From Schmidtea nova (Eukaryota), in contig CM097883.1 in the NCBI GenBank assembly GCA_044892505.1, positions 408,152,722-408,210,000 on the forward strand: a DNA stretch of 57,279 nt. Reading direction: 5' to 3'. Positions 34,965 to 42,927 of this stretch are shown here, piece by piece (the first letter of the stretch is position 1; each line of letters opens with the position of its first letter). The notes under the pieces are model-generated. The model was given only the letters and a program-made list of their open reading frames with translations, searched no databases and was not told the DNA's origin. The position numbers were made by a program, and so were the translations under genes.

Positions 34965-35065
34965 TACATATTTATATGTGTGTGTGTGTATTTATTATCA
35001 TAAGTAGATAAATCAATAATTATATAATTATATAATATAAATTCATGGAATGAAATTTGCCTTCA

Positions 35066-35803
35066 ATGACACCCCGCCAACCATTGATGCGTGTTTGCAT
35101 TAACATTTGCGATTATCTCACAAAATCTGCGAATGATTTAGCTCACAAGGGTTTCTATTTGAAAGCCGTCCATTTCCATGAAGCTAATAAATTGATTATC
35201 AAAAATCTTTTCACCGAAAATAATTTGCTCCCGAGTGAAGAAGCAAAGATTGAAGAACTACTGAAACTGACCGACGAATATATCGAAGGTCTGAAGCCCC
35301 ATTGTGAACAAGAACTATTCCCAAAAGTGATTAGCATCAAATCTGGCGACACCGGATATAATTATTACAAAATCACAAAAGACGCATTAGATGGATGTGT
35401 GAAATCAGCACAGATATATGATCCATACATCAGATCACAATATCAGATAAATAATTTGTTCCGCCTAGTAAAAGTGTTGATTGATCACGAAAAGAATTTG
35501 ACACAAATAAATTTGTTTACGGGTCAAATTCAAAACAAGAAGCATATTGGCCAACAGGTAGACGGATTAGAAAACATCAAGTCACACTTGTTACTAACTC
35601 AACCGGAAGTCCATTTTCAGTATAAGTTTAGCAATGATTTTCATGATCGTAAAATATTATTCAGCAACGGTTTCGTGATCTCACTGGGAAGGGGTCTAGA
35701 CATCTTTTCTGATAACAATATTAATGAGGATATTGAAGATGAGAGGAAACGTTGCAAGGAAACTGACATTTACATTTTTCGATCTCTTTCTCTCTACAAA
35801 TAA
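35066..35803 (+). CDS. MITD1: MIT domain-containing protein 1 homologue (MIT and PLD-like MIT_C), intronless, about 245 aa
   Basis: TGYNY, IYDPYIRSQYQINNL, FHDRKILFSNGFVISLGRGLDIF and RCKETDIYIF match the MITD1 C-terminal domain. The N-terminal helices are MIT-like. The start could be the ATG at 35066 or 35087. Confidence 0.9.
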   Translation: MTPRQPLMRVCINICDYLTKSANDLAHKGFYLKAVHFHEANKLIIKNLFTENNLLPSEEAKIEELLKLTDEYIEGLKPHCEQELFPKVISIKSGDTGYNYYKITKDALDGCVKSAQIYDPYIRSQYQINNLFRLVKVLIDHEKNLTQINLFTGQIQNKKHIGQQVDGLENIKSHLLLTQPEVHFQYKFSNDFHDRKILFSNGFVISLGRGLDIFSDNNINEDIEDERKRCKETDIYIFRSLSLYK

Positions 35804-37166: not shown

Positions 37167-37776
37167 TTAAACCATGGCTCCTTCCTTGTTGAAAATATCA
37201 GTATTAACTCTTAAATCATCACTGCATTGTTGTGTGAAATCTAGGAAAAGATATCCATGAGAAGCTTTTGTAGCCTTTTGAAACGCATCAATCAGGAAGT
37301 TCCGATTTGAAGGGTAAGCTTGTCTTGCCAGAAAATCAATAACTGTTGCATCTCTAGGATTTTTAAAAACAGCAAGATATTGAACATTAAAATTCCGGGT
37401 TCGATGACTACATCCCTGATGAAATAAATTCTGAGTAATAAAAATAATTGTAACACCTTTGTGTCTACTGATTTTCGTAAATAAATTATTAAAGTCCTTT
37501 TCTTTGTTGGCTTTTTGATAAAAGTCATCAATAATAATGACTTCCTTGGCGTAATCTAGATGACCAGTTTTTATCGAAACATTTTATGATTGTCATTTTT
37601 ATTTTACAAAATTGATCTTGAGTCATTCCATGTTCATCATCAGCTCCCCTATGCCAATATATTTAATTGAATTTAGATTTGAATAATTTAGATTGCAACA
37701 ATTTACAAACAAATAAAGTTTTCCCACTCCCGCTCGGTCCAATAATTTGAAACACTGCATCATTTCTTTATTCCAT
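37167..37776 (-). pseudogene. Polinton/Maverick-type DNA-packaging ATPase (A32/FtsK-HerA family)
   Basis: Walker A GPSGSGKT (37717-37740), Walker B VIIDD, then LFTKISRHKGVTIIFITQNLF, RTRNFNVQYLAVFKNPRD, FLARQAYP, AFQKAT...HGYLFLD and RVNTDIF. It has two premature stops and one frameshift, so it is absent from the ORF track. Confidence 0.9.
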
Positions 37777-37869: not shown

Positions 37870-38483
37870 ATGATTAGAAACATTAATTATAAAGGTAAGA
37901 CATATGTGAATTTTCCAAATGAGAAACCACAGCAAATTGTAGATAGAAGTGGGAAGTATCCAATAATATACTTTAAGACAGGCATTTATAGAATAATGGG
38001 ATGCAAGGAATTTATTAGTGATGAAAAAGTAAAGTTTGACGATTTAACAATACAATCGATCACTGTAACTGCAGATTTATTTGTAATTTAAATGAATTAT
38101 CTAAATTGATAGAATGTGTTTACGAGCCAGAATTATTTCCAGCTTTGAGATATATCAAATATAATCCCATGTGTGTAATTATATTTGCAAGTAGTAAATT
38201 AGTCATTTTAGGATTAAAAAACAAAGACTATTCAAATATAGTTGATAATATTATTAATGATATAAAATCAATTATCGAAGATAAAGCCTTTGTTGATTTC
38301 ATACTAACATGTGACTGCAATATTGATGCAATAGAAATGCACGATTATGATTGGTCCAGTATGTATTTCGAGAATAAAGAAATGTTGTGCATGCTTGAAT
38401 CTGATTGGTTCAATGTGTATTATTTTATACATGTTGTGTGTTTCTATCATATATATATTTATTGTATGAACATTCTATCATAG
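37870..38483 (+). pseudogene. Divergent TATA-binding-protein-like gene (copy 1, frameshifted)
   Basis: LTIQSITVTADL, YEPELFPALRY and IIFASSKLVILGLK correspond to TBP repeat 2 (FKIQNMVGSCDV, YEPELFPGLIY, LIFVSGKVVLTGAK). The first half IYFKTGIYRIMGCK resembles a shortened repeat 1. A 7-bp deletion near 38080 relative to copy 2 breaks the frame. Confidence 0.75.
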
Positions 38484-38570
38484 TTTATATCTAAAAAAGG
38501 TGCTTAAAAGAAACTATGCTAAAAAGTGGTAAGGATAACACTTATTATTTTTCAATTTTAATATTATTTA

Positions 38571-38679
38571 TGTGAGATAATAAGACAATTTAAATATTTA
38601 TTCAGTCAATAAATCTACTTATTTAAACAACTTTATTTTCTTTTATAAATCATTATTTTAAATTATTCTTCTTTATACA
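38571..38679 (-). repeat. 3' LTR
   Basis: Identical to 42029-42137. Confidence 0.97.
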
Positions 38680-41405
38680 TCTCCCCGAGATTCTAACAAA
38701 TCTTCATTCCTGTGCCTCAAGTCAGCTACATGACGCGGCATTGCCACGGTTCCGTAATCGACGATTGCTTTATGCGGAGACAGCAGCTTCATGATTCTTC
38801 CTCTCATCCAGGAAGATGTACATGGTTGATTTTGCGAGGGTTTCACCCACACCTTGTCGTTAATCTGAAAGCCATTGTCTATTTGTTGAGCCGTTCTTTT
38901 CGTTTCATTAAATCGAAGTCTTAGGTCATAAGCGTAAATGCCTTTTATCGGAGGTCTGGAAGAACCATTTACTGGTGTATTATTGTACCAGTAAATTGCT
39001 TCTTGCACTGAGCATTCCGATCGCGTGACTGCAGCTTTTATTGTTTTATGGTTCCTCTCAATAATGCCGTTGCCTGCTGGTCTATTAGCGGATCTGAATT
39101 CAGTTCTAATTCTCCACCTTTTCATTAGAGAAGTGAAAGTTTCTGACCTAAACGATAAGTAATTGTCCAACAGAAGCTCGTCAGGAGGTCCTCTTTCATA
39201 AAATACCTGTTCCAACTGCTTGCAAATTTCGTCTGCGCTTTCGTTTCGTATTTCTCGCCAAATCGCAAATCGAGAAGGCCCACAATCTATGATTGTTAAA
39301 AATTTTCTTTGATGTAATTTAGTCACATCGATAGCTAATCGTTTCCAAGAATCTTTTACCTCTAATTGCCCTTTGCTGATCTTAACCGGATGAGGGTCTA
39401 TTGATTGACATTTGTCACACTTCTCGACAATCTCTTTTAACTCATTTTGAGAAAGGTTAATTCCTGCTTCCTCGGTCAAGAACCTCAACCGATCTCCTCC
39501 GAAATGGCTTAATTTGTGTATTTCAACTGCGTTCTTGATGGGATCTTCACCCGGGTCTAGCAACGCCGTATTACACGTATGTTTCGTAATCCAATTTGAG
39601 GGAATTCTGGTTAATATGTCGGATTTATTTTTGTCTGTTGGAACGTATTCTATTTCAGCCTTTATCTCATATTCAATAATTAATTCTTTAATTATGTTGA
39701 GCCTTCTTTTTACTAACATTTCTGAGGAAGCTTTAGTTGAAACCTTTCTCTCGGATGTCAAGGCATTATGTACCCAACTTACCACGGATTTGTTATCCGA
39801 CATGATCTTAACAGTCTTTAAATTCCATTTGATGCATAAGTTGATGCCTTTAACGATCGCCTCAAGTTCGCACAGGTTAATGTGCCTAACGTCCTTCTCC
39901 TTTCTCAACCAGCATGCGTCTTCCATAATATTTCCGTCGATTTCTAGCGCTGCTCCTATGGCGATAGAGCTGGCATCACACCATAAAATATTTCCTCTGT
40001 CCATTGGTGCTTTCCATATACCATGAGCTGGATCATTCTTTTCAACCTCCTTTATTAACCATTTAACTTTGTTTAGTAATTGAACGTCGATTGGCCGGTC
40101 CCATTCTCCTTCGCTTAATCGTTTGAGATAAGAGCACGCGGGTCGTAACCAACCTGCAACTGGAAGAATTCCGGTTAATTGACCGCATAACGAATACAGT
40201 TCTCGTCTGTCCATTCTCTTTTCTTCAAATTCGTACCGGATGACATTGGCTCGGTTCCATTTTAATAAGTTATCCTCAATATGAACTGATAATCCAAGTA
40301 TTCTTAGAGCTTTTGTTGATGAGGGGCGTTCAATTTCTTTCGTCATCAAGTTAACTTTTTCTAGCCAGGCTTTTACTTCTTCAGCTGGGACAACTTCTTC
40401 GTCGATAAAAATATCGTCAATGTACGCACTGGCTCCTTGTTTTATTCTGTCATTTAAACCCAACACGTAGTTAACGATCTCTGTCATAATACTGGGAGCG
40501 ATATTGATTCCGAAGCCTAGTCTTGTCAATGCATATCGCCTTCCGTTTACAATGCATGACTGGTACTTCCACATACTCTCATCAACCCGGATTTGCATGT
40601 ATGCATCAGATAAATCCAAAATCGCTATTTTCTTTCCCTTCTTTCTCCAATCTCTTATTGTTTCATTGCAAACTACTGCTTCTCCACTATAGACGTCTAA
40701 ATAATGATTTAAAGCTCTAAAATCGAACACTGGCCGTATTTTGCTCTTGTTCTTTTGCATAACCGGAAATAAAGTTACTGCTCCAACAGGCTTACCGAAC
40801 CGGTTTTCGTCATATTCGACTAACCATCCATTTTTGACCCACTGCTCGATGACTTTGAGAGCCTGGCCTGCTTTGGGCTTATCTGGATCTAACTTGGAAT
40901 ATCGATCTGACATTGATACTGAGGGTTCTGTGTTCCAATTCCATGATACCATCCATTCTTTGTTGAACGTTGCTTCGAAGTTCTTCCTTTGAATTAAAAA
41001 ACTCTGAGCTTCGTTTCCGTTTACAGCCATCAAACATTTCAATTCACATCCGAATCTGACGTCTTCACTGATTGTCACTCCTCCTAGTGCTATAATGGCG
41101 TTCATACCTAATATGACATCATATCCCGCTATCATTTTTCTAGAAATAAAACAGTCAATGATAAAGTACTTTCCTTCTAATTCGATTTCTGCCTTGCTCT
41201 GGCTCACTGGCAGTATTGATCCATCTGCTAGGAACACTTGAACGTTGGGTGATGTGATGGCTTCTCCGCGTATAATTGTTGTCGAGCAGCCGGAATCTAT
41301 AAGACAAAGACGTTTTGATCCATTTATGGAAAGGAGTCTTTCTTTTAACATCTTTTTGGGATCGAGAGAGACTCCTGAATATTCTCGATCCCGTTGTCTT
41401 TTCCC
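38673..41405 (-). CDS. pol: Pol polyprotein (PR-RT-RNase H-integrase), probably entered by a -1 frameshift from gag
   Basis: PR LIDSGCS; RT LDLSDAY, TRLGFG, YIDD; RNase H CDASS, ELEA, SDN; integrase H-x3-H...C-x2-C, IDVT, LDN, IERNH; Gypsy domain order. The stop codon lies inside the 3' LTR. Confidence 0.95.
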   Translation of the reverse strand, partial: GKRQRDREYSGVSLDPKKMLKERLLSINGSKRLCLIDSGCSTTIIRGEAITSPNVQVFLADGSILPVSQSKAEIELEGKYFIIDCFISRKMIAGYDVILGMNAIIALGGVTISEDVRFGCELKCLMAVNGNEAQSFLIQRKNFEATFNKEWMVSWNWNTEPSVSMSDRYSKLDPDKPKAGQALKVIEQWVKNGWLVEYDENRFGKPVGAVTLFPVMQKNKSKIRPVFDFRALNHYLDVYSGEAVVCNETIRDWRKKGKKIAILDLSDAYMQIRVDESMWKYQSCIVNGRRYALTRLGFGINIAPSIMTEIVNYVLGLNDRIKQGASAYIDDIFIDEEVVPAEEVKAWLEKVNLMTKEIERPSSTKALRILGLSVHIEDNLLKWNRANVIRYEFEEKRMDRRELYSLCGQLTGILPVAGWLRPACSYLKRLSEGEWDRPIDVQLLNKVKWLIKEVEKNDPAHGIWKAPMDRGNILWCDASSIAIGAALEIDGNIMEDACWLRKEKDVRHINLCELEAIVKGINLCIKWNLKTVKIMSDNKSVVSWVHNALTSERKVSTKASSEMLVKRRLNIIKELIIEYEIKAEIEYVPTDKNKSDILTRIPSNWITKHTCNTALLDPGEDPIKNAVEIHKLSHFGGDRLRFLTEEAGINLSQNELKEIVEKCDKCQSIDPHPVKISKGQLEVKDSWKRLAIDVTKLHQRKFLTIIDCGPSRFAIWREIRNESADEICKQLEQVFYERGPPDELLLDNYLSFRSETFTSLMKRWRIRTEFRSANRPAGNGIIERNHKTIKAAVTRSECSVQEAIYWYNNTPVNGSSRPPIKGIYAYDLRLRFNETKRTAQQIDNGFQINDKVWVKPSQNQPCTSSWMRGRIMKLLSPHKAIVDYGTVAMPRHVADLRHRNEDLLESRGDV
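41332..41405 (-). other. -1 programmed ribosomal frameshift signal (slippery site and H-type pseudoknot)
   Basis: G GGA AAA in the gag frame, a 6-nt spacer, a 10-bp stem 1 and an 8-bp stem 2. Confidence 0.8.
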
Positions 41406-42016
41406 GATTTACAATATCGGGATTGGTGTCCAAGCATTTCACACCTAGAACATTGAATTTTTTTCTTGTTCGGACAGTTACGGGCAAAATGATTTTCATT
41501 ACAAATATAACATTGCATCTTCTTTATCTTCGCCACAAAGGCAGACTGATGTCCATGAGTTAGATTCAGTCGTGAAACGATGTCACCGATTGCGTCGATC
41601 GTCGTTGATCCTTGTCGTCTCACCTCAGCTGCGATTTCTACTGGCAAGGATTTGATTATAATGTTTATTAAGAGATCTCCAGCGTTACAAGCCAGATTCT
41701 TCATTTCTGATAAATGAATGTTAATATTGTCCCCGATCTGGAATCTCTTGTTTAACAACTTGGAAAAACATGCTTCTGGGGGATCGCTGAAAGCTCGTAT
41801 CAATGATATTTTAATTTCTTCATAACTAATATCTTCGTTTTTCGCTGCTTCCTTCAAGGTGATAAATGCCTTCCCCTTCATGACAGCAGGTAAAATTTCT
41901 TTTTTTCCATTGAATTTGTGAAGCTTGCATATTAATTCAAACTTATCGAACCATTCATCGATTTTCACGGTTTCGCCGTCAAAACATTCGATTGCATTCA
42001 ATATATCTTTTATCAT
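41345..42016 (-). CDS. gag: Gag with two CCHC zinc knuckles (about 223 aa)
   Basis: FDGE...DEWFDKFE, CYICNENHFARNC and CSRCEMLGHQSRYC. The first ATG after the LTR is at 42016. Confidence 0.92.
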   Translation of the reverse strand: MIKDILNAIECFDGETVKIDEWFDKFELICKLHKFNGKKEILPAVMKGKAFITLKEAAKNEDISYEEIKISLIRAFSDPPEACFSKLLNKRFQIGDNINIHLSEMKNLACNAGDLLINIIIKSLPVEIAAEVRRQGSTTIDAIGDIVSRLNLTHGHQSAFVAKIKKMQCYICNENHFARNCPNKKKIQCSRCEMLGHQSRYCKSGKDNGIENIQESLSIPKRC

Positions 42017-42028
42017 GCCCGGATAGCT
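42017..42028 (-). other. Atypical primer-binding site complementary to nt 1-12 of tRNA-Lys(UUU)
   Basis: Sense AGCTATCCGGGC is the reverse complement of GCCCGGATAGCT. Confidence 0.7.
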
Positions 42029-42137
42029 TGTGAGATAATAAGACAATTTAAATATTTATTCAGTCAATAAATCTACTTATTTAAACAACTTTATTTTCTT
42101 TTATAAATCATTATTTTAAATTATTCTTCTTTATACA
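42029..42137 (-). repeat. 5' LTR
   Basis: Identical to 38571-38679. Confidence 0.97.
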
Positions 42138-42154
42138 ATTTATTTTTTAGAAAA

Positions 42155-42459
42155 GCTGATGACAATCGTATACAAGAAAATGGCCAAAATATTTCCGAAC
42201 CTCATGCCAACACTGACCTACGGCACCAGAACTCTTTCCGTATACGATTCAGGTGTTAACAGGGATAGATGTCCACCGGATCATATTGGATCATCTCGCA
42301 AATCTTAACAATGATTTGCCCCATATGGCTGAGCACATCCTCTGTGCATATCAATGCGGGAATTACGTGGAAAGGATCCGAAAATTTCATATTTGGGTTT
42401 TGAGAAACTCCCTCAAACAATATGAAACAGCACAATTGGAAAAAGTTGAAATCCAATAA
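42155..42459 (+). pseudogene. Unknown 'gene B', copy 1 (frameshifted, 3'-truncated)
   Basis: Paralogous to 43073-43545 (NLMPTLT..APELFPY...LTGID...DH.ANLN.DLP.MAEHILCAYQCGN). Confidence 0.7.
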
Positions 42460-42927
42460 TTTATTTTAAGACAAGCAGATATAGAATAATGGGATGCAAG
42501 GAATTTATTAGTGATGAAAAAGTAAAGTTTGACGATTTTACAATACAATCGATCACTGTAACTGCAGATTTAAGATTCATTTGTAATTTAAATGAATTAT
42601 CTAAATTGATAGAATGTATTTACGAGCCAGAATTATTTCCAGCTTTGAGATATCAAATATAATCGCATGTGTGTAAATATATTTGCAAGTAGTAAATTAG
42701 TCATATTAGGATTAAAAAACAGACTATTCAAATATAGTTGATAATATTATTAACGATATAAAGTCAATTATTGAAGATAAAGCCTTTGTTGATTTCATAC
42801 TAACATATTGATGCAATAGAAATGCACGATTCTGATTGGTCGAGTGTGTATTTCGAGAATAAAGACATGTTGTGCATGCTTGAGTCTGATTGGTTCAATG
42901 TGTATTATTTTGTACATGATGTGTTTT

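Follow-up and report, generated by a model that had tools for sequence, protein, structure and literature searches.

Minus-strand synthesis of an LTR retrotransposon in Schmidtea nova is likely primed by a short 5'-terminal fragment of a host tRNA, 10-12 nt in length. The element lies on the minus strand of the window (the whole 57,279-nucleotide stretch of DNA that was analyzed), and the 12 bases that follow its left LTR most probably constitute its primer-binding site, with tRNA-Lys(UUU) as the apparent donor here and tRNA-Phe(GAA) in most of its relatives. The evidence for fragment priming is genomic throughout. The site reads AGCTATCCGGGC (minus strand, 42028-42017), and is located directly after the CA of the 5' LTR and directly before the gag ATG. 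As a preliminary description of this DNA had pointed out, there is no TGG in these 12 nt; the site neither starts with TGG nor pairs with the CCA of a tRNA 3' end.

The host genes for tRNA-Lys(UUU), which form a tandem array, start with GCCCGGATAGCTCAG (682 pattern matches; ARAGORN identified three loci as Lys(ttt)), and the site AGCTATCCGGGC pairs with nt 1-12 of this tRNA at all 12 positions. The flush 12/12 match to the 5' end of tRNA-Lys(UUU), proposed in the preliminary description, is thus borne out against the host's own tRNA genes, and so is its remark that the CUU isoacceptor is different, since host tRNA-Lys(CUU) has a C at nt 7, unlike Lys(UUU), and forms a weaker duplex. The predicted duplex energies of the window site were -25.5 kcal/mol with nt 1-12 of Lys(UUU), -20.8 kcal/mol with Lys(CUU), and -16.6 kcal/mol with host tRNA-Phe. 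Over the whole element, the 12-nt site is the longest complementarity to tRNA-Lys(UUU), followed by one of 9 nt, and accessory pairing that might help to open the tRNA was not found above 9 nt anywhere in the window element. By arithmetic under uniform base composition, the chance that the bases flush with the LTR match the 5'-terminal 12 nt of one or another of ~50 tRNAs is ~3e-6, or ~1e-5 when four offsets are allowed. Separately, priming by the 3' end of Lys(UUU), Lys(CUU) or Phe was ruled out by a complementarity search of the element, and pairing with the pre-tRNA leader was rejected, as the bases past the site differ among families and do not track the leader.

The element is 3,567 bp in length and displays the regular features of an LTR retrotransposon, i.e., two direct LTRs with TG...CA ends, a target-site duplication within the 4-6 bp range (here 5), and a polypurine tract (Table 1). 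The pol frame is -1 relative to gag. Pfam analysis of pol recognized RT, DUF7047, RNase H (under the cut-off) and integrase, in Gypsy order, and the protease was assigned by reading, from the LIDSG motif; the order PR-RT-RH-IN is Ty3/Gypsy-like, and there is no env ORF. The catalytic residues of pol are near-invariant across 50 aligned proteins, and the four acidic residues of RNase H are invariant in 50 of the 50, as would be expected of any active element. Since many copies in the host genome keep the full 911-residue frame, the window family is considered young. In a PDB search, the integrase matched those of Ty3 (6e-13) and MMTV type, and the RT part matched retroviral RTs, so that the clade is regarded as divergent. 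DUF7047 (PF23088) is situated between RT and RNase H at pol residues 401-457 and was present in 120 of 120 relatives among the matches listed, and it may be usable as a marker of the clade at the protein level.

Table 1 Features of the retrotransposon in the window
Feature	Position	Strand	Basis
Target-site duplication, left copy (TAAAT on the minus strand)	42138..42142	-	duplication found on both sides
5' LTR, 109 bp, TG...CA	42029..42137	-	100% identical to 3' LTR
Probable primer-binding site AGCTATCCGGGC, complementary to nt 1-12 of host tRNA-Lys(UUU), abutting the LTR at zero offset	42017..42028	-	sequence match; 12-bp predicted duplex
gag ORF, ATG at 42016 directly after the site; two CX2CX4HX4C knuckles	41345..42016	-	knuckles read from translation
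Heptamer G GGA AAA where gag and pol overlap, likely site of -1 frameshifting	41399..41405	-	putative function
pol frame, 911 aa: protease, RT (YIDD), DUF7047, RNase H, integrase	38673..41408	-	Pfam; catalytic residues present
Polypurine tract GGGGAGA before the 3' LTR	38680..38686	-	sequence reading
3' LTR, 109 bp; contains the pol stop codon	38571..38679	-	LTR pair 100% identical
Target-site duplication, right copy, 5 bp	38566..38570	-	matches left copy

In the neighborhood of the element, two diverged TBP-like fragments flank it at 38040-38480 and 42451-42927 (Pfam TBP, 8e-9), and a weak Pox_A32-like ATPase fragment (37170-37583; E 0.014) lies beside a TBP-like fragment; together, they are perhaps the decayed remains of a large DNA element. 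Further along, an open frame of 249 codons at 35054-35803 encodes an MIT_C (phospholipase D-like) domain (Pfam, 3e-33).

The site is a repeated feature of the host genome. The Lys(UUU) 12-mer preceded by CA occurs 429 times, against 0 for the reversed-pattern control, and 30 of these matches, on examination, fell into three families of 17, 7 and 6 copies. The 12-mer is, therefore, common to at least three families with unrelated LTRs, and the three diverge at the base right after it, which is where tRNA nt 1 ends. Of 30 copies of the window family that were selected for RT similarity, without reference to the site, 29 had it in exact form; a protein search of the same genome returned only the window's family among the 150 matches listed. 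Host tRNA-Phe(GAA) starts with GCCGCGATAGCT, and the complement of its 12-mer, preceded by CA, is found 686 times (control, 0); 28 of 30 such copies examined match the window gag or pol, and at least seven families could be distinguished by eye. Most families in the host genome thus match nt 1-12 of tRNA-Phe(GAA), not of Lys(UUU). The corresponding Lys(CUU) complement occurs only 7 times, despite the abundance of Lys(CUU) genes. LTR pairs and 5-bp duplications in the host copies place the site at zero offset, the second LTR being found in 13 of 20 stretches. One of the Lys(UUU)-type families, designated C, has two-LTR copies of ~2.5 kb (L217, L218, L222), with no RT stretch long enough for a tree, and is possibly a deleted, non-autonomous family. 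The host genes for tRNA-Phe, tRNA-Lys(CUU) and tRNA-Lys(UUU) are arranged as extended tandem arrays, each with from hundreds up to >2,000 matches to the pattern; such arrays are seen at C1 566.9 Mb, C2 333.4 Mb and C3 72.8 Mb.

Relatives of the element are also found in other organisms. The pol sequence has 233 relatives at E up to 0.001, and the protein matches extend to nematodes, crustaceans, insects, cnidarians and bryozoans, the named sources being Trichuris, Amphibalanus, Macrosteles, Hydra and Watersipora. A metagenome scan yielded 75 loci, in 53 of which a gag start was located, with the use of a gag profile that had been seeded from loci already carrying the site. At RT-RNase H identities of 34-46%, 52 of the 53 have AGCTA plus seven bases at the LTR edge; the sequence of the remaining one (L102) starts 72 nt before gag, with only the final 8 letters of the site visible. 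A TGG site was found in none of the metagenome relatives with a gag start. The other loci consist of two with the site at the contig end, 19 without the junction, and one that is ambiguous (L125). The boundary between site and LTR was confirmed in three two-LTR metagenome contigs (L097, L104, L135). L166, the one distant out-group, carries a TGG site of the ordinary kind, and a scan of viral contigs contributed one distant locus.

Clustering at 80% RT-RNase H identity produced 44 clusters with a site, 36 of them metagenomic and 8 from the host. The most frequent form, in 17 clusters, is AGCTATCGCGGC, the host Phe form, followed by AGCTATTTCGGC (12 clusters), which is contained in a fly tRNA-Phe(GAA) 5' probe (PMC7038984, in excerpt), AGCTATCACGGC (5), the Lys(UUU) form AGCTATCCGGGC (3), AGCTATCCCGGC (2), and five singletons, one of which matches a tRNA-Phe(GAA) gene in L246. 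Exact matches to an attested tRNA 5' 12-mer (host Phe, fly Phe, host Lys(UUU) or L246 Phe) account for 33 of the 44 clusters; the other 11 match no tRNA examined, and tracking of the host tRNA is directly visible only in the host genome, where the CAC form of the site also arises by CpG decay. The preliminary description had offered conservation of the 12-mer in relatives as a check of its interpretation; a tRNA 5'-end site is indeed conserved, but its Lys(UUU) version is in the minority, as most relatives match tRNA-Phe(GAA). Information content over the 44 clusters is 1.73 bits at position 12 but only 0.38 at position 13, a stop due in part to the way in which the sites were picked, since the pattern used for this fixed positions 1-6 of the site and allowed few endings at positions 10-12. 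Judged from these sequences, the middle of the site appears to track the acceptor stem of tRNA-Phe or tRNA-Lys, and conservation appears to stop at tRNA nt 1.

A tree was also built from 66 of 97 rows, leaving out those with <200 residues or without the site, including family C; it is a quick tree from an unfinished search, with SH-aLRT support only and no monophyly test. The Phe-type families of the host appear in four places of this tree, all with the host's triplet, and sister rows from other records differ in the triplet (L141 versus L210/L213; L096 versus L105; L117 among TTC rows). The Lys(UUU) form appears in two separate places, namely the window group and L165.

Three other observations were made on the relatives. 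First of all, the G run of the polypurine tract is repeatedly preceded, in members throughout the clade (L097, L098, L104, L135, L150 and others), by an immediately adjacent motif that resembles GATC. Secondly, L136 contains, between primer site and gag (1845-1950), a tRNA-like sequence that ends in a T run and is flanked by a GCGGCC repeat, and that looks like a tRNA-derived SINE insertion. Lastly, in the broken gag of L162 (625-665), a tRNA-Lys(CUU)-like 3' end in the sense orientation is joined head to head with a 17-nt complement of the tRNA-Lys(UUU) 3' end; the join may have come from template switching onto tRNA, from a Twin-like SINE or from chimeric assembly. The primer site of L162 itself is one base off the Lys(UUU) form.

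Variant copies in the host genome provide a possible footprint of priming. In retroviruses, plus-strand synthesis copies the primer tRNA into the site; if the present elements are primed by a tRNA, the occasional use of a near-matching tRNA should leave the letter of that tRNA in the site. All seven Lys(CUU)-type sites are in fact copies of Lys(UUU) families B (five) and C (two), with a single T>G change at position 6. The other changes at this position among the element copies were two T>A and no T>C, and the control T at position 4 had five T>A, no T>C and no T>G. Substitution rates in the flanks of 30 copies led to an expectation of 1.9 T>G changes at position 6, against the 7 observed (P ~0.003), and for family B alone of 0.40 against 5 (P ~6e-5), all of these being small numbers. 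The G copies do not form one group, as L226 and L224 differ from ordinary copies by 0.2% and 0.7%, respectively, and L261 belongs to another sub-lineage, although two of the five family B copies align poorly in this comparison. The Lys(CUU)-matching excess looks like what copying of the primer into the site would produce. An equal excess would arise if selection favored sites still matching some tRNA, and the conclusion would be supported just the same. Full two-base swaps between Lys(UUU) and Phe were absent from the one variant in family B and from nine variants in one Phe family, a null result that nonetheless fits the weaker duplex with Phe.

The simplest model for these findings would be Tf1-type chemistry on a tRNA. 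The site runs from the LTR edge to tRNA nt 1 and is complementary to a mature tRNA 5' end, that of one or the other of two host tRNAs. In the particle, the element RNA would displace the 3' strand of the acceptor stem as well as the D-stem, leading to a 12-bp RNA duplex; since the acceptor-stem 3' strand recurs as the final seven bases of the site (exactly so for host Phe), annealing would be a strand displacement. The tRNA would then be cut at the edge of the duplex to generate a 3'-OH, probably after U12 and, with clearly lower likelihood, after G10. In 43 of the 44 clusters, tRNA C13 is opposed by the A of the LTR; because pairing ends at U12 and a primer needs its 3'-OH at the LTR edge, the cut would have to fall at or before nt 12. 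The most likely cutter, in a choice that we consider evenly balanced, would be the RNase H of the element itself, by analogy with Tf1, in which the RNA's first 11 bases pair with the site and RNase H cleaves between bases 11 and 12 (PMC7175516, in excerpt).

As suggested by the variant counts, plus-strand synthesis would subsequently copy the primer to its 5' end and thereby rewrite the site, which would account for the abrupt end at nt 1, for sites that follow the host tRNA and for the Lys(CUU)-matching excess. A 12-nt primer copied to its end would create the nt 1 boundary without a modified-base stop. At the element's opposite end, a pyrimidine is found two bases ahead of the 3' LTR in six loci (L107, L127, L134, L217, L219, L222), a hint of a 2-nt spacer, with integrase trimming two bases. 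The AG after CA could be the trimmed pair, in which case the primer would end at nt 10 or RNase H would leave two ribonucleotides.

The same 5' fragment could alternatively be made by a host nuclease, through a tRNA-fragment pathway or over-processing by RNase P, and be packaged ready-made. Half-tRNA priming is known from Drosophila copia and yeast Ty5, and RNase P has been proposed as the source of the copia half-tRNA primer. Host nucleases are, moreover, described in part of the literature as producing 5' tRNA fragments, but the reported sizes of 16-35 nt (PMC7515703, in excerpt) are longer than 10-12 nt. The length of the duplex is also the same as in Tf1, where RNase H makes the cut (PMC7175516, in excerpt), and its geometry is constant across many hosts, which fits an element-encoded cutter; a host origin of the fragment is thus regarded as unlikely, though deserving of serious thought.

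Binding of the tRNA 5' end could, in principle, serve packaging, translational control at the gag ATG, or silencing by tRNA fragments, with another primer being used for synthesis. The evidence for a primer is indeed indirect here, and the gag ATG lies 0-11 nt past the site in most host copies examined. However, several relatives in which gag starts 100-280 nt from the site still have the site at the LTR, which is exactly where a primer site must be, and the element offers no alternative in the form of a TGG or a self-complement. Mere binding of tRNA would also leave the Lys(CUU)-matching excess unexplained, and we consider this role improbable.

It is more doubtful still that the 12-mer survives as an inactive remnant of a tRNA end captured in the past, or that it acts as DNA bound by a protein, for example as an integrase or Pol III signal. 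The first bases of the site do adjoin the CA recognized by integrase, and pieces of tRNA do enter these elements, as in L136 and L162; nonetheless, the 12-mer is letter-perfect in families that share only ~35-60% protein identity and no LTR similarity, and the middle of the site switches between two host tRNAs within one genome, by which this possibility is largely refuted. The tRNA-sense strand reads TAGCTTGTG, and the A-box bases past nt 12 are lost. Lastly, Tf1-type self-priming from the 5' end of the element's own transcript, which the site resembles in its flush position and 11-12 nt length (PMC7175516, in excerpt), was already judged unfit in the preliminary description for want of a complement in the LTR and is refuted in the window element, where the best match to the site complement spans 3 nt within the LTR and 6 nt within the element as a whole, making it the most remote of the alternatives.

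Three primer types have been distinguished, namely a whole tRNA, a half tRNA produced by a cut in the anticodon stem (a type limited in plants to Ty1/copia), and a self primer (PMC6317226, in excerpt), and the window clade falls outside the defining property of each, and would work like a cross of half-tRNA and self-priming. It resembles half-tRNA priming in the putative use of a 5' piece of a host tRNA, in the internal cut, here predicted, that would provide the 3'-OH, and in the lack of TGG. However, the cut in half-tRNA priming is in the anticodon stem, and the plant elements of this type (Osser, Bryco, Gymco-II and Bianca) use tRNA-Met or tRNA-Ile (PMC6317226, in excerpt); the match in the window involves nt 1-12 of an elongator tRNA-Phe or -Lys and not the anticodon arm, the primer would be wholly paired, and the integrase follows RNase H in the Gypsy order, unlike in Ty1/copia. 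As in Tf1/Sushi, the first 11-12 nt of an RNA pair at the LTR edge, with a putative freeing cut in the present case, but the donor would be a host tRNA acting in trans, the LTR is devoid of a complement, and Pfam detected no chromodomain.

Canonical Ty3/Gypsy elements share with the window element the PR-RT-RH-IN order, TG...CA LTRs, polypurine tract and CCHC gag, and the 5-bp duplication is as in mosquito Mag. Nevertheless, Mag, CsRn1, Osvaldo and errantiviruses prime from the CCA end of tRNAs (PMC3286476, PMC2582038, PMC13524379, all in excerpt). The window site is unlike those of Mag, which are complementary to tRNA-Leu, -Ser or -Arg (PMC3286476, in excerpt), and differs from the CsRn1 site given in PMC2582038 (in excerpt). 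Troyka is likewise an LTR element of aquatic animals with short LTRs and an equal domain order, but its CG...CG ends, 3-bp duplications and CX2CX8-10HX4C knuckle have no counterpart here; primers are not mentioned in the available portion of its main text (PMC12440569). Similarly, the accessible main texts of two surveys of mollusc and annelid Gypsy clades present no primer sites, and the motifs were absent from the supplements examined. No description of this site in a retrotransposon was found in the open-access literature, including by its literal motifs, with Repbase and GyDB outside the scope of this search; it is rather unlikely, although by no means far-fetched, that the site has been noted before. 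From the sequences at hand, a 5'-terminal tRNA-fragment primer is best read as a class beyond the three in PMC6317226.

Priming is a defining step of every retrovirus and LTR retrotransposon. In the fullest form of our proposal, which we advance tentatively and at somewhat less than even confidence, a widespread animal lineage would be defined by a fourth priming mode, in which an elongator tRNA (Phe or Lys) is caught by its 5' end, the element's own RNase H cuts after the 12-bp duplex, the primer is copied whole, and the site is rewritten in every cycle. If this is true, the 5'-terminal 10-12-nt tRNA primer would be a fourth type that bridges half-tRNA priming and Tf1 self-priming, and would bear on how tRNA priming arose. 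On the practical side, since only the 3'-terminal 12 nt of tRNAs were searched in the available portion of PMC13524379, pipelines of this kind would score the clade as primer-less; the site offers a one-motif marker for an unnamed clade that annotation based on tRNA 3' ends would miss. A further prediction is that blocking of these elements at the site is not possible with 3' tRNA fragments, whereas fragments from the 5' end could either prime or block them.
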